Origin: a virus
Lineage: Duplodnaviria; Heunggongvirae; Uroviricota; Caudoviricetes
Strand: one strand, 5' to 3'
Virus record (IMG/VR): IMGVR_UViG_2617270967_000008
Length of the DNA: 23,006 bases
Part shown: positions 3,460 through 23,006 of the stretch, one piece after another
Position numbering within the stretch: position 1 is the stretch's first letter
Layout: each line of letters starts with the position of its first letter
Notes under the pieces: model-generated
What the model was told of the DNA's origin: nothing
The model's database searches: none
Seen by the model: only the letters and a program-made list of their open reading frames with translations
Position numbers and translations under genes: made by a program

Positions 3460-6581
<3,122 letters not shown>

Positions 6582-14133: not shown

Positions 14134-14165
14134 CCCGCCCGCCACTCACTGCGGGCTTTTTTTTG
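14134..14165 (+). terminator. Plus-strand hairpin followed by T8
   Basis: CCCGC-cactcact-GCGGG then TTTTTTTT on the + strand; the opposite orientation to the surrounding genes. Confidence 0.5.
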
Positions 14166-14171
14166 CCCATA

Positions 14172-14199
14172 GAAAAGCCCCTCCGGAGAGGGGCTTTTT
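14172..14199. terminator. Bidirectional rho-independent terminator
   Basis: AGCCCCTC-cgga-GAGGGGCT flanked by AAAA and TTTT. Confidence 0.65.
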
Positions 14200-14439
14200 A
14201 CAGTGGTAGTGTAGACAATTTTGCATGGTGCCGGGTGCCTCCCGGTGAGTTCAGTATCAGCACCTGAACCCGCACAGAAAGGATAAGGGTCGGTGACAAA
14301 ACACCAGTTGCTGATTGCCCCTCCGCACAGGGGGATTCACCATGCCAGTTTCTTTTAACAAACTCCCCGCAAACCAGACAACAGTCAACCGCCTGAATTG
14401 TGAGGTATTTAAAAATTTCAACGGGTAACTGATACCCTG

Positions 14440-14613
14440 CTAATCGCCTGATGCTTTCTTTTTCAGCAACGGGAAAGCAACAACCACCACACCCGCCACC
14501 AGCACACCGTCAGCCAGCACTGACATTATCCGGCTGCTGAAGTCCACCATCACCACCATCACTACCAGAAACAGCAGGAGCGCAACCACAGCCAGACGCA
14601 TTTTTACCGTCAC
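14440..14613 (-). CDS. Small two-TM hydrophobic peptide (~57 aa) translationally coupled to the TerB-like gene
   Basis: GTG 14613..14611 overlaps the TerB stop (GTGA) with GGAGA 7 nt upstream; an ATG lies at 14601; own translation MRLAVVALLLFLVVMVVMVDFSSRIMSVLADGVLVAGVVVVAFPLLKKKASGD. Below the ORF-track size cutoff. Confidence 0.45.
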   Translation of the reverse strand: MTVKMRLAVVALLLFLVVMVVMVDFSSRIMSVLADGVLVAGVVVVAFPLLKKKASGD

Positions 14614-15041
14614 AGATGATTCTCCAGACGAAGGCCCAGAACACCGGCAATCTCTTCCAGCACCTTGCGCTCTTCCGGCTCTATTTCGCCGTCTGCTTCG
14701 GCAATGGCCACCGCCACATCCAGCACGTCTTCCGCTTCACGCGTATCGTGTTTCACATCCTCGATCTCACGTAACGCCGCTCGACGACCAATTTTAAAGT
14801 TCGTATCCAGCTGACCGATAATGGTTGCGCTAATCGCATTAATTTCTGACGTAAACGCGGACAACGCAGGCTGGTTACGCAAGACCTGCTCGATCTTCGC
14901 TTTCTCTGAAGCCTCACATTCACCATCTGCATAGGCCACCAGATAGGCAGCATTAATAACCGCCTGTGCCAGATCACGTTTCTCAAACTTTTTAATTTCC
15001 ACTGCCGCTCGGCGGGCTTTTTTACCAAAAATACCAAACAT
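14610..15041 (-). CDS. TerB-domain (tellurite-resistance TerB-like) protein, cargo at the stx-equivalent position
   Basis: Two ADG-containing helix pairs (AAYLVAYADGECEASEKAKI and VAVAIAEADGEIEPEERKVLEEIAGVLG) typical of TerB; start at ATG 15041 (MFGIFGKK) with AAGGAA 8 nt upstream. Confidence 0.7.
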   Translation of the reverse strand: MFGIFGKKARRAAVEIKKFEKRDLAQAVINAAYLVAYADGECEASEKAKIEQVLRNQPALSAFTSEINAISATIIGQLDTNFKIGRRAALREIEDVKHDTREAEDVLDVAVAIAEADGEIEPEERKVLEEIAGVLGLRLENHL

Positions 15042-15181
15042 CGTGACGTTCCTTTGGGTGGGTGAGCCAACGCCCGGGAGCGATCTGCCCACAGAGAAAG
15101 TCACACTGACCACTCCGTAAGCTCACCCCCGAAAGGCTCTGTGGTTGATATGCGCCGGGCGTGGCGCGGATACAAAAAAGG

Positions 15182-15210
15182 CCCGCAAAAGCGAGCCGGG
15201 AAAAATAAGT
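15182..15210 (-). terminator. Terminator after the tRNA cluster
   Basis: Minus-strand GGCUCGC-uuuu-GCGGGCC (one G-U pair) followed by UUUUUUGU. Confidence 0.55.
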
Positions 15211-15211
15211 C

Positions 15212-15288
15212 TGGCGCGTTGTACTGGATTCGAACCAGTGACCGATTGCTTAGAAGGCAATTGCTCTGTCCGGCTGAGCTAACAACGC
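15212..15288 (-). tRNA. tRNA-Arg (anticodon UCU)
   Basis: Hand-folded cloverleaf: acceptor GCGTTGT/ACAACGC, D-arm GCTC/GAGC, anticodon loop CTTCTAA, T-arm ACTGG-TTCGAAT-CCAGT, discriminator G, encoded CCA. Confidence 0.85.
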
Positions 15289-15304
15289 AGGATACAGATA
15301 ATGA

Positions 15305-15378
15305 ACCGCCTTCGGGGATCCGAACTCCGCGCAACCAGCTTCGAAGGCTGGCGCTCTTTCCTGATGAGCTAATGGCGG
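15305..15378 (-). tRNA. tRNA-Arg-like (anticodon UCG) with non-canonical features; possibly degenerate
   Basis: Hand fold: D-arm GCTC/GAGC, anticodon arm CCAGC-CTTCGAA-GCTGG; T-loop TTCGGAT with one A-C mismatch in the T-stem; acceptor 6/7 paired, starts C1-G72, no encoded CCA. Confidence 0.5.
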
Positions 15379-15385
15379 TATGTGA

Positions 15386-15461
15386 TGGTGGCCCTTGCTG
15401 GATTTGAACCAGCGACCTGGCGATTATGAGTCGCTCGCTCTCACCACTGAGCTAAAGGGCC
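15386..15461 (-). tRNA. tRNA with anticodon CAU, resembling E. coli tRNA-Ile2 (ileX-like) rather than tRNA-Met
   Basis: Hand fold: acceptor GGCCCTT/AAGGGCC, anticodon loop CTCATAA, T-arm GCTGG-TTCAAAT-CCAGC, encoded CCA; overall resemblance to ileX as recalled. Confidence 0.8.
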
Positions 15462-15489
15462 GAGCCAAAAAATAATAATCAGATGAAAA

Positions 15490-16203
15490 TCAATAATCAA
15501 GCCCTTGCCTGGATACATATCTGTCTGGCGGGAAGCCATAATAGCGGTGAAATACAGAAATAAAGTAGGACCTGCTTGAATAACCGCATTTTTCTGCTAT
15601 AGCCTGTCCATATCCATGCCGGGAACATAACATATTTACAGCAACACGCATCCGCTCTTCCAGCAACAAGCGACTGAACATGCCCCCTTCATTTTTCAGT
15701 TTTGTCTTTAACAAACTCTCACTCATATGCAACTGTAGAGCAATCGCACAAAGCGTCCAGCTTGCTGATATATCTGTCTGAATTATCGCCCTGACTTTGG
15801 CACTTATGCTGGATAAACATCCACTTAAAAACAATGACATCCGTTCATCTGTTTCAAACAGAGACAGGCAGGCCATCATAAGAAACATATCCGTGGCCTC
15901 TCCGGAAAATCCCTGGCTGGTAATTAAAGCCGCAGCCAACGCAGGATTGTTGGGTTCCAGCAACAGGTAAAGCGGAATGTCAGTCAGACGAGTCCTCGTC
16001 AGCTTATGCTGACTTTCCAGATATTGACTTACGACGGATTCGCTTATATCGACAATTTTAACTTTGCCATAATGCATAAGGAAAAGCTCCCTGATGCATT
16101 TGGTGGCCAGAACAACTGAGCCTGGCTTAAGTGACAACGTATCCTTTTCAAGAAAAATATTAATTGGGGAGCAAACCATGATAACTGAACAGACAACAGC
16201 CAT
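15490..16203 (-). CDS. AraC/XylS-family transcriptional regulator (AppY/EnvY-like; prophage regulatory cargo)
   Basis: C-terminal double-HTH (...LLKTKLKNEGGMFSRLLLEERMRVAVNMLCS...AEKCGYSSRSYFISVFHRYYGFPP) resembles EnvY/AppY; N-terminus MAVVCSV like AppY MDYVCSV; AT-rich. Confidence 0.85.
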   Translation of the reverse strand: MAVVCSVIMVCSPINIFLEKDTLSLKPGSVVLATKCIRELFLMHYGKVKIVDISESVVSQYLESQHKLTRTRLTDIPLYLLLEPNNPALAAALITSQGFSGEATDMFLMMACLSLFETDERMSLFLSGCLSSISAKVRAIIQTDISASWTLCAIALQLHMSESLLKTKLKNEGGMFSRLLLEERMRVAVNMLCSRHGYGQAIAEKCGYSSRSYFISVFHRYYGFPPDRYVSRQGLDY

Positions 16204-19462: not shown

Positions 19463-19618
19463 TTACTCCTCAGGTTCGTAAACTGTGAAGACAGCGACCT
19501 CCGTCTGGCCGGTTCGGATTCGTACCTCGCAGAGGTCTTTCCTCGTTACCAGTGCCGTCACTATGACGGTTAAACAGATGACGATCAGGGCGATTAACAT
19601 CGCCTTTTGCTGCTTCAT
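19463..19618 (-). CDS. hokD: Hok/Gef-family type I toxin (HokD-like, 51 aa)
   Basis: MKQQKAMLIALIVICLTVIVTALVTRKDLCEVRIRTGQTEVAVFTVYEPEE is near-identical to HokD as I recall; AAGGAG RBS; an upstream in-frame ATG gives a mok-like extension. Confidence 0.85.
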   Translation of the reverse strand: MKQQKAMLIALIVICLTVIVTALVTRKDLCEVRIRTGQTEVAVFTVYEPEE

Positions 19619-19909
19619 AGCCTGCTTCTCCTTGCCTTTCGGCACGTAAGAGGCTAACCTAGATTTGCCGTTCATAGATTGAGCCTCAGATTAATGTTAA
19701 GCGTCTTGCAGGACGCGTAATGTTAACTGGGGCTTTTCTCTATCTGCCTTTTGGTATTCATGCCTGAGACAGATAGCCTCAAGCACCCGCAGCAATTCTA
19801 CTTAACTATCCTTTCCCCGCAAATCGTTTTTATCCCCAGCGACAAATCGAATACACCACCAGCGCCACCGCCATTGCGATCCCTACCGTTGTGAATGCCT
19901 CAGGCCAGG

Positions 19910-20669: not shown

Positions 20670-21608
20670 TTACAGCAACAAAGCGGTCATGAAAGCAAAC
20701 CTTGAACCCGTTGCGCTTAAGGAACCTGTAACCAGTTCATCCCATTTTTCGCGAAGCTTTGACGGACTCATGATATTTTTTACCCAGAATGGATCCCGCT
20801 GCGCCCGACCAAACATTTCACAAATTTGTCTGTGAGTTCTGCCATCCAGCATCCGCATTGTGCGCACGTCGTTGGCCCATGCGGTCCAGTTGGGTTCTTT
20901 CGGTCGCGAAATCTCGCCATCATCGCTGGCGGCCTGCTCGTAAAGACTCACGATTCGTCCCCAGATCCACTGCGCACACGCCAAATCTTCCTGGTTGCCC
21001 CACTGGCGTTTTTTTGCACTGAACACAACCGCGTCAGGGTGTCGGGTTAAAAAATCCTGTTCAACCGTCTGCGGGTCCGGTTGCGAAGCTTCCGGACGAG
21101 AAGTGTTTTTATTCTCTGTAGTAATCTCTGTTGTATTCTCTGTAAGATCATCAGGCCATTTTGACCCGATGACATTGAGTCGTTTTGAACCAATGGAACG
21201 TGCCATTTTGGCCCCTTCCATCGTGTCATTCTGACCTGATGGAGCAGCGCATTTTGACCTGATGGATTCGCTCACTTTGCCACCATTTAAAAGCTCGCTC
21301 TCGTAATTAATCGTGTAAAAATTAGTCATATCACGCTTTGATTTATTGAGCTTTTCGCAACGCAAAAGCCCCAGCGTTTTCAGACTTGCAAATGCGCGTT
21401 TTAACGTTGACTCTGACCAGAACGGGAACTGCTCCAGCCATTGTTCTGTTGTGTTATAAATCCAGCGAACACCATCACATTCCATGCCGGAACCGGTATC
21501 TCTCAACCAGTAATGCAACTGCTGCAACACGATGGCTTCGTTCAGACCAATTTTCATCGCCAGCTGCGTGTTTATAACCAGCGGACGTTCAGCAAAAAGG
21601 AGCTTCAT
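20670..21608 (-). CDS. Putative phage replication-initiation / replisome-organizer protein
   Basis: N-terminal HTH-like region (LNEAIVLQQLHYWLRD...STLKRAFASLKTLGLL) and position upstream of the nin-like genes; start at ATG 21608 directly after a G9 tract. Family assignment is tentative. Confidence 0.5.
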   Translation of the reverse strand: MKLLFAERPLVINTQLAMKIGLNEAIVLQQLHYWLRDTGSGMECDGVRWIYNTTEQWLEQFPFWSESTLKRAFASLKTLGLLRCEKLNKSKRDMTNFYTINYESELLNGGKVSESIRSKCAAPSGQNDTMEGAKMARSIGSKRLNVIGSKWPDDLTENTTEITTENKNTSRPEASQPDPQTVEQDFLTRHPDAVVFSAKKRQWGNQEDLACAQWIWGRIVSLYEQAASDDGEISRPKEPNWTAWANDVRTMRMLDGRTHRQICEMFGRAQRDPFWVKNIMSPSKLREKWDELVTGSLSATGSRFAFMTALLL

Positions 21609-21617
21609 CCCCCCCCC
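21609..21617. repeat. Homopolymeric C9 (G9 on coding strand) tract abutting the replication-gene start codon
   Basis: Direct reading: nine consecutive C at 21609-21617; ATG at 21608..21606. Confidence 0.9.
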
Positions 21618-21628
21618 AGAACACGTTA

Positions 21629-21888
21629 TCAATGCGCCACCACGGCATTTCCCGCCGGACCACCACGATTCATCTGATCGAACAACACGATCGCTGCCGC
21701 AACAAACTCATCGATATCTTTCACCAGGCGCTCCCGTCGCTCGACAAGCTCCCGGTGATATTCCGAACTGTGGCTGCGCATTCGGGCCACCAGTGGAGGC
21801 GGCATTGCTTTTTCGATCGCCGGTAACAACGCCTGAATTTTTTTAACCGCATCAGGGGTGTCTTTTTCTACCCAGCGGAAAATTTTCG
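21629..21888 (-). pseudogene. 5'-truncated prophage gene (C-terminal ~66-86 codons) interrupted by the IS66-family insertion
   Basis: Open frame continues upstream of the track start with no stop until it enters the IS end near 21889; the stop overlaps the replication-gene region. Confidence 0.4.
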
Positions 21889-21972
21889 TAAGCGTAAAGC
21901 CAATGCCGTCTGTAACACCTGCTCCTTGCAGACTAAATTAGAGCTCCTTCTAAATTAGACGGAGTTCTATTG

Positions 21973-22407
21973 ATGGATAAACCTACAGACTGGCGCTCCG
22001 GAACCCGCCGGATATTTTCTAATGAATTTAAACTTCATATGGTTGAACTGGCTTCGAAACCAAATGCCAATGTTGCACAACTGGCCCGGGAACATGGCGT
22101 TGATAACAACCTGATTTTTAAATGGCTACGCCTCTGGCAAAGAGAAGGACGTATTTCTCGTAGAATGCCTCCAACTATTGTAGGCCCTACAGTATCACAA
22201 TCTTTTCCGGCCTCTCCGACTCTGGTTCCAGTGGAACTTATCGACACCCCGCGCTGTGCTACAGATGCTCCTGCTCCGGGGGCATTATCAGTTGCTTGTG
22301 CAGCTTCCTGCCATGTGGAATTCCATTACGGTAAAATGATGCTGGAAAATCCTTCACCAGAGCTGCTCACGGTGTTGATCCGTGAGCTGACCGGGAGGGG
22401 ACGATGA
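21973..22407 (+). CDS. tnpA: IS66-family accessory protein TnpA
   Basis: N-terminal ...RRIFSNEFKLHMVELASKPNANVAQLAREHGVDNNLIFKWLRLWQ HTH typical of IS66 orfA; ATG 21973 with GGAG upstream. Confidence 0.85.
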   Translation: MDKPTDWRSGTRRIFSNEFKLHMVELASKPNANVAQLAREHGVDNNLIFKWLRLWQREGRISRRMPPTIVGPTVSQSFPASPTLVPVELIDTPRCATDAPAPGALSVACAASCHVEFHYGKMMLENPSPELLTVLIRELTGRGR

Positions 22408-22754
22408 TTTCACTCCCATCAGGTACCCGTATCTGGCTCGTTGCCGGCGTTACTGATATGCGTAAATCCTTCAACGGTCTGGGGGAGCAGATACAGCATG
22501 TGCTGGATGATAACCCCTTCTCCGGTCACCTGTTTATCTTCCGTGGCCGACGGGGAGACACGATTAAAATCCTGTGGGCTGATGCTGATGGTCTGTGCCT
22601 GTTCACCAAACGCCTTGAGGAAGGTCAGTTTATCTGGCCTGCGGTGCGTGACGGTAAGATATCCATTACCCGCTCGCAACTGGCAATGCTCCTCGATAAG
22701 CTGGACTGGCGTCAGCCAAAAACATCCCGCCTTAACGCACTGACAATGTTGTAA
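22404..22754 (+). CDS. tnpB: IS66-family TnpB
   Basis: 116 aa, MISLPSGTRIWLVAGVTDMRKSFNGL...LFIFRGRRGDTIKILWADADGLCLFTKRLEEGQFIWP, characteristic IS66 orfB; overlaps the tnpA stop. Confidence 0.9.
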   Translation: MISLPSGTRIWLVAGVTDMRKSFNGLGEQIQHVLDDNPFSGHLFIFRGRRGDTIKILWADADGLCLFTKRLEEGQFIWPAVRDGKISITRSQLAMLLDKLDWRQPKTSRLNALTML

Positions 22755-22784
22755 AAAACGCCGGGCCGGATTATAAAAACGGCC

Positions 22785-23006
22785 ATGAGTCAGAAATACC
22801 TCATTCGCATCGCTGAGCTGGAAAGGCTGCTCTCTGAGCAGGCTGAAGCCCTCCGTCAGAAAGACCAGCAACTGAGTCTGGTTGAAGAGACGGAGGCCTT
22901 CCTGCGCTCTGCACTGGCACGTGCCGAAGAAAAGATCGAAGAAGATGAGCGAGAAATAGAGCATCTGCGGGCTCAGATAGAAAAACTGCGCCGGATGCTG
23001 TTCGGA
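22785..23006 (+). CDS. tnpC: IS66-family transposase TnpC, N-terminal 74 codons (3' end beyond window)
   Basis: Own translation MSQKYLIRIAELERLLSEQAEALRQKDQQLSLVEETEAFLRSALARAEEKIEEDEREIEHLRAQIEKLRRMLFG: the coiled-coil N-terminus typical of IS66 transposases. Confidence 0.8.
   Translation, partial: MSQKYLIRIAELERLLSEQAEALRQKDQQLSLVEETEAFLRSALARAEEKIEEDEREIEHLRAQIEKLRRMLFG

Follow-up and report, generated by a model that had tools for sequence, protein, structure and literature searches.

A lambdoid prophage whose immunity region is of the CP-933P type almost certainly acquired, by simple insertion into its ydaT gene, an insertion sequence (IS) of the IS66 family that is 2541 bp long in complete copies. 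The DNA that we analyzed, referred to as the window, is a stretch of 23,006 nucleotides that constitutes the whole of draft contig JNRW01000069.1 (GCA_000704885.1), from a short-read assembly, and it ends inside the IS. The left junction of the insertion is in the window itself. The right junction, with the duplicated target, is known from three near-identical sister assemblies and not from the window's own assembly (GCA_000704885.1). The original prediction had placed an IS66-family element in the early region of the prophage, and this was borne out: the element matches IS66 copies in sequence, and the gene that it cuts lies directly upstream of an O-type gene.

The interrupted gene at the left end of the IS

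The features around the left junction are as follows.

20670-21608, minus strand: O-type replication initiator gene, directly downstream of ydaT, with its 3' end replaced at a deletion junction
21629-21887, minus strand: 3' fragment of a ydaT-family (cII-analogue) gene, with 100% nucleotide identity to the gene of strain SHP24
21880-21887, no strand assigned: left copy of the target-site duplication, AAATTTTC, repeated after the right inverted repeat (IRR) in sister contigs L011, L012 and L013
21888-23006, plus strand: left 1119 bp of the 2541-bp IS66-family IS; the contig stops inside the IS
21888-21911, plus strand: left inverted repeat (IRL), imperfect, GTAAGCG first, defined by alignment with the reverse complement of the IRR
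21973-22407, plus strand: tnpA, IS66-type accessory protein of 144 aa (PF01527 HTH_Tnp_1, 1.9e-10)
22404-22754, plus strand: tnpB, IS66-family accessory protein of 116 aa (PF05717, NF033819)
22785-23006, plus strand: 5' part of tnpC, the first 74 codons (DDE transposase, 537 aa when complete), identical to the reference

Positions 21300-21887 were 100% identical (588/588) to an intact E. coli locus in several complete genomes, where the sequence covers the start of a gene annotated as 'phage replication protein O' and the 3' part of one annotated as 'toxin YdaT family protein'. The full 588-bp flank was found in 60 complete genomes, and the 141-aa gene is intact there. Compared to the intact locus of strain SHP24, positions 21560-21887 were the same and divergence began exactly at 21888. 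In a three-way alignment, identity with SHP24 ran to ...GGAAAATTTTC, and from the next base onward the sequence was that of the IS left end. The IS terminus GTAAGCG begins at 21888, one base to the left of the position (21889) given in the original prediction. Chance is excluded as an explanation for this arrangement, because 1117 of 1119 IS bases and all 588 flanking bases match, and the position of the break coincides to the base with the IS terminus.

No stop interrupts the minus-strand frame that terminates at 21629-21631 as far as 21887, and it continues for another 17 codons to a stop within the IS. In-frame translation of the remnant could begin only at internal codons, a TTG (66 aa) or an ATG (50 aa); there is no natural start before the IS. 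The intact ydaT gene of SHP24 is 426 bp and encodes 141 aa. The remnant in the window is the 3' 259 nt of that gene, identical at every nucleotide, and begins with the final base of codon 56, followed by codons 57-141 and the stop. The gene had been described as truncated by the IS. It is interrupted, but split rather than simply truncated, since its 5' half lies across the IS in the sister assemblies.

Gene callers annotate the 50-aa and 66-aa products here, as they would if this were a genuine small gene with a natural start (21629-21829 from the TTG, 66 aa, or 21629-21781 from the ATG, 50 aa) to which the IS is merely adjacent. We reject this reading altogether: every one of the 259 nt matches the 3' end of the 141-aa gene, which 60 complete genomes carry intact, and the missing 5' part sits at the other end of the IS in the sister assemblies.

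Assignment of the interrupted gene to the ydaT family is based on both sequence and position. The fragment in the window matched PF06254 (YdaT_toxin) with 29.3 bits (cut-off 21), and the intact protein matched CP-933P YdaT (PDB 8bt1) with 1.9e-81 and approximately 85% identity. O is directly downstream in the window, and ydaS is directly upstream of the 5' fragment in the sister contig L011. In the cryptic prophage CP-933P (Sp12) of E. coli O157:H7, in which PaaR2, YdaS and YdaT form a switch, the intact allele is likewise between ydaS and O. As a CII analogue, the YdaT of CP-933P activates a PRE-like promoter located between ydaS and its own gene (PMC8630535). Its recognition helix, alpha3, extends from Ala50 to Asp63 and includes Arg60, a conserved base contact; helix alpha6 forms the tetramer, and a truncated protein containing residues 1-96 loses DNA binding (PMC9986795).

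The break in ydaT is at residues 56-58, within alpha3 (Ala50-Asp63) of the POU-type DNA-binding domain. The fragment in the window retains alpha6, and alpha1, alpha2 and half of alpha3 are gone. Binding to DNA requires both an intact POU-type helix-turn-helix (HTH) and alpha6, a combination that the split gene lacks. The ydaT of CP-933P is intact and functional (PMC8630535, PMC9986795), whereas here the IS splits the gene inside recognition helix alpha3. Judged by its sequence, the piece of ydaT in the window is a pseudogene fragment of the family and not a functional member.

A homopolymer of nine C's (G9 on the coding strand) is located between ydaT and O, at 21609-21617, and abuts the 5' side of the O start codon. 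Complete genomes that are otherwise 99.7-100% identical have 9, 10 or 11 residues in this run. The variation may be due to strand slippage or to sequencing error.

Identity of the IS and its right junction

We compared positions 21500-23006 to 5426 complete E. coli genomes using megablast. There were thousands of matches, confined to the right-hand 75% of the query, and the annotations of the best matches were transposase, IS66-family TnpB, and IS66-like element ISEc47 (or ISEc43) family. The IS part of the window was 99.1-99.8% identical in nucleotide sequence to copies labelled by PGAP as ISEc47 or ISEc43 family. The copies with 99.6-99.8% identity are named 'ISEc47 family' and those with 99.1-99.6% identity 'ISEc43 family', so that nearly identical copies of this IS carry two different PGAP names. 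By sequence comparison, the element is a known IS66-family IS, of the ISEc47/ISEc43 type according to these labels.

We used a complete copy of 2541 bp (L001:3010-5550) as the reference. It has GTAAGCG at its start and CGCTTAC at its end, and is flanked by an 8-bp duplication, AAATCCTC. Over the 1119 bases of the IS in the window there were two mismatches with this copy. Both are in tnpA and cause two substitutions in TnpA, P92T and E103G; TnpB is the same as the reference protein, as are the first 74 residues of TnpC. The IRL at 21888 begins GTAAGCGTAAAG. Aligned with the reverse complement of the IRR, GTAAG(C/T)GTCAACGGAGCACCGTAT, the IRL (GTAAGCGTAAAGCCAATGCCGTCT) matches at approximately 15 of 24 positions. 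The IRR ends ...GACACTTAC in the sister contigs compared to ...GACGCTTAC in the reference copy. This is a single nucleotide polymorphism, giving CACTTAC in place of the CGCTTAC of the reference; read inward from the IS end, the repeat begins GTAAGTG here and GTAAGCG in the ISEc47/ISEc43-type reference. Imperfect terminal inverted repeats starting with GTAAGCG are reportedly a feature of the IS66 family.

The three open reading frames tnpA, tnpB and tnpC are on one strand, in the IS66 layout. As had been predicted, the IS bears tnpA, tnpB and the start of tnpC and continues beyond the window, with tnpC leaving the window after 74 codons. TnpA scored 66.8 bits with the curated IS66 TnpA model NF047595 (cut-off 74) and 61.9 bits with NF038385 (cut-off 150). 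TnpB scored 123.7 bits with PF05717 (cut-off 26.6) and 119.1 bits with NF033819 (cut-off 50), and the start of tnpB and the stop of tnpA share the sequence ATGA at 22404-22407. The 74-residue stretch of TnpC alone matches no family model. The leucine zipper, zinc finger and IS66-type DDE domain expected of TnpC in this family are represented in the complete reference protein, which matched NF033517 with 451 bits and contains PF03050, PF13007, PF13005 and PF13817 domains, and the 3' 331 codons of tnpC in the sister contig L011 gave matches to PF03050 and PF13817. The element in the window shares the tnpA-tnpB-tnpC layout and the GTAAGCG termini with ISEc47/ISEc43 (IS66 family; relatives ISEc8 and IS679). 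The length of 2541 bp and the 8-bp duplications are also common to both, and there is no difference of substance.

The sequence CTAAATTAG occurs twice as a direct repeat, at 21933-21941 and 21950-21958, in the non-coding stretch that separates the IRL from tnpA at the left of the IS. These paired repeats could be a subterminal protein-binding motif.

The left junction was present in seven draft assemblies: the window's own and six others, one of which is duplicated by an IMG/VR entry. We compared the six sister contigs (L004-L009; L003 is the duplicate of L008) to the window base by base and found that they differ from it at zero to two IS bases. They stop 259, 439, 508, 817, 829 and 1158 bp into the IS, and the window stops at 1119 bp. 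This pattern suggests that these genomes have several related IS66-family copies with common internal segments that break short-read assemblies inside the element. No contig crosses the whole IS; the closest approach leaves a central gap of 121 bp. We infer that this copy of the IS is intact.

At the intact locus, AAATTTTC is present in a single copy and belongs to a palindrome, GAAAATTTTC, in ydaT. In the window it directly precedes the IS, and in sister contigs L011, L012 and L013, whose assemblies also hold the left junction, it directly follows the IRR. The right junction in these three assemblies reads ...TTGACACTTAC, then AAATTTTC, then TGGGTATTACG; in a longer reading across it, ...CCGTTGACACTTAC is followed by AAATTTTC and then by TGGGTATTACGAG.... 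The target-site duplication of IS66 is 8 bp (PMC6778807). Removing the IS and one copy of AAATTTTC restored the SHP24 sequence exactly. The IRR and the 8-bp duplication, which the original prediction had proposed looking for, were both found in this way, and joining the flanks recovered the intact 141-aa ydaT gene.

A predicted protein provided a further view of the right junction. An exact look-up of the 66-aa remnant gave its 90% cluster, and one of the members, P0126, is a 72-aa protein encoded in the same strains. In P0126, the first 58 residues of YdaT are followed by 14 IS-encoded residues, CKCQRSTVLTLIYW, and this tail matches the reading from ydaT into the right end of the IS with the single base change in the IRR. 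The fusion peptide of 72 aa predicted from the reference IRR is not on record, because the local IRR carries the polymorphism. The right-junction pattern with the reference IRR (CGCTTAC) had no match in IMG/VR. A match to a shorter pattern, containing the IRR and the target duplication, was discarded as chance; it was an unrelated IS66-like element on a low-GC metagenomic contig. No IS-split fragment was among the best 120 matches listed for the intact YdaT, all of which were full-length or nearly so (130-144 aa).

The longest of the three right-junction contigs (L011; the two shorter ones end earlier) shows the gene order beyond the IS. It contains the 5' part of ydaT, ydaS (PF15943, cro-like), a gene for a 133-aa HTH repressor (paaR2-like), paaA2-parE2, a gene for a DUF1391 protein, dicB, ydfD, an exonuclease gene, xis, int and ompW. 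The region beyond the IS corresponds to the CP-933P-type immunity region as described (PMC8630535), with the paaR2-like repressor and paaA2-parE2 of the CP-933P neighborhood matched across the IS from the ydaT in the window. The prophage adjoins ompW in near-identical sister genomes. The prediction that the IS separates the replication side from the immunity and integration side agrees with the sister assemblies, in which ydaS, the repressor gene, xis and int are all across the IS.

The window stops inside the IS, and it is conceivable that in this genome an IS-associated rearrangement, through recombination of one IS copy with another or a deletion next to the IS, joined the far IS end to unrelated DNA; the immunity and integration side would then not be its direct neighbor. 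Such events do occur, as indicated by the plasmid copy L023/L024, which does not have matching flanking duplications, and the right-junction open reading frame P0126 was recovered from only three of the seven assemblies with the left junction. However, an uncalled 72-aa open reading frame is to be expected in fragmented assemblies, and the three sister assemblies with the perfect right junction and matching 8-bp duplication are near-identical to the window, with zero to two differences in the IS and, in the adjoining flank, approximately one every 4.5-5 kb. We consider this explanation very unlikely. Even less credible, to the point of being negligible, is an assembly artefact in which a chimeric contig joins the prophage to a repeated IS. 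The assembly is a short-read draft, and the contig does end within a repeat, but the same junction is present in seven separately assembled genomes with contig ends from 259 to 1158 bp into the IS, the junction is exactly at the IS terminus, and the complementary right junction with its target duplication exists. Simple insertion into ydaT is the reading that we adopt below.

Distribution of the insertion and other lesions in the prophage

The insertion junction was found in none of the 5426 complete E. coli genomes (megablast). Scans for the exact junction in species-representative genomes and JGI metagenomes gave no match, nor did a scan for the IRL in species-representative genomes. Elsewhere, five independent insertions of this IS bear flanking 8-bp duplications. 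An apparent preference for A/T-rich targets with CCG upstream in the first seven sites (the window, L001 and L022-L027) was rejected, as ten further IMG/VR sites show no consensus. The apparent preference was an artefact of BLAST ranking, which places hits reaching into the flank at the top of the list. The same type of IS is in the traP region of ETEC plasmids (L023/L024), inserted in traP with 8-bp ends that differ, GAAATTAC and TGACAACT. The unequal ends indicate an IS-associated deletion or recombination at that site.

The IS is not the only lesion in this prophage. The O gene is identical to 'phage replication protein O' of SHP24 up to ...REKWDELV and divergent thereafter. The divergence is at a deletion junction, 20729/20730, with 2 bp of microhomology (TA), where 3683 bp are missing compared to SHP24 and NMBU-W12E19. 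The final 29 codons of O are lost, and 20 codons from beyond the junction are present instead. The deletion took the gene for a DnaC-like ATP-binding protein (helicase loader) together with six genes that follow it (DUF1627, DUF977, DUF4406, ead/Ea22-like and two hypothetical); its low-coordinate end is inside a frameshifted hypothetical pseudogene (L002 1605-1783). The 20729/20730 junction was found in none of the 5426 complete E. coli genomes. We found no genome with only one of the two lesions, the IS insertion and the 3.7-kb deletion.

Deletions in the head and tail genes were called by comparison to an intact-looking relative (L018, the prophage of strain 23CRST047). Together, the three that lie within the morphogenesis region amount to approximately 14 kb:

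1840-1844: J lost, and the I gene fused to lom (compared to L018)
3586/3587: tape measure through Z lost (tape measure, T, G, V, U and Z; compared to L018)
3851-3856: FI through the 3' part of the portal gene lost (compared to L018)

The fusion open reading frame at 1441-2076 contains the N-terminus of tail assembly protein I and Lom. The 3851-3856 deletion also took the capsid, decoration and protease genes, and the fusion open reading frame at 3460-4482 contains the N-terminus of the portal protein and the head-tail joining protein.

On this sequence, deletion of the loader gene and the 3' end of O, and gutting of the head and tail genes, make the prophage non-functional independently of the IS. 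The original prediction that the insertion contributes to crypticity overstated the role of the IS, given that no fewer than four deletions inactivate the prophage as well. The IS is a neutral-looking lesion, one of at least five, in a decaying prophage.

Rac, DLP12 and Qin of K-12 are decayed lambdoid E. coli prophages with IS insertions and internal deletions. The prophage in the window is like these remnants in its lambdoid gene order, multiple internal deletions and one IS, and likewise retains moron and toxin-antitoxin genes (hok/sok, parE2-paaA2). It differs from them in its set of lesions and in its integration site, next to ompW in the sister assemblies.

Two other blocks were observed in the window. 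A cargo block at 14165-16203, between the Q antiterminator gene and a SASA-family esterase gene, contains the small RNA STnc100 (14165-14374, 145.6 bits), a gene for a TerB-domain protein (14610-15113), three tRNA genes (Arg-tct, Arg-tcg and one with a CAT anticodon; 15212-15461) and a gene for an AraC-family regulator (15490-16203). The hok/sok type I toxin-antitoxin system is retained at 19463-19788, with sok (Rfam, 112.4 bits) at 19613-19788 and a Hok-family open reading frame at 19463-19675.

Consequences of the insertion

An IS encoding TnpA, TnpB and the DDE transposase TnpC almost certainly inserted in ydaT and duplicated the 8-bp target AAATTTTC. The gene was thereby split between codons 56/57 and 58/59, inside alpha3, leaving codons 57-141 beside O, in the window, and codons 1-58 beside ydaS, across the IS. 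Neither fragment should bind DNA, because the recognition helix is cut in two and YdaT 1-96 already fails to bind (PMC9986795). Both halves would have lost DNA binding, and CII-like activation of PRE would be lost as a consequence.

The IS genes point away from O. Rightward transcription from the promoter on the cro side would no longer reach O, because 2.5 kb of oppositely oriented IS intervenes and there is no promoter-like site at the junction. We also looked for a promoter pointing out of the left IS end, which could drive the remnants of ydaT and O, and found no sigma-70-like site in 21400-22100. From the sequence, the remaining part of O is probably untranscribed.

It is highly improbable that the remnant with residues 57-141, which keeps alpha6 but has no DNA-binding domain, is made from an internal start (the 66-aa or 50-aa open reading frame) and acts as a dominant-negative partner of the YdaT of other prophages in the same cell. 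If it did, then regulation of lysis-lysogeny or of toxin-antitoxin functions of other lambdoid prophages would be altered. No promoter-like site was found between 21400 and 22100, and expression of such a remnant is thus without support.

The significance of the insertion is small outside annotation. The 'hypothetical proteins' of 50 and 66 aa that are called here in several draft genomes represent one half of a ydaT pseudogene split by an IS, and that of 72 aa on the partner contig represents the other; two contigs of these assemblies are shown to be neighbors across the IS. The insertion is absent from 5426 complete genomes and can therefore be used to trace a small clonal group of E. coli isolates. 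The IS is known, the target family is characterized, and IS insertions in decaying lambdoid prophages are commonplace, making this an ordinary event of a kind already known. With O truncated, the loader gene missing and the head and tail genes gutted, the prophage is a non-inducible remnant.
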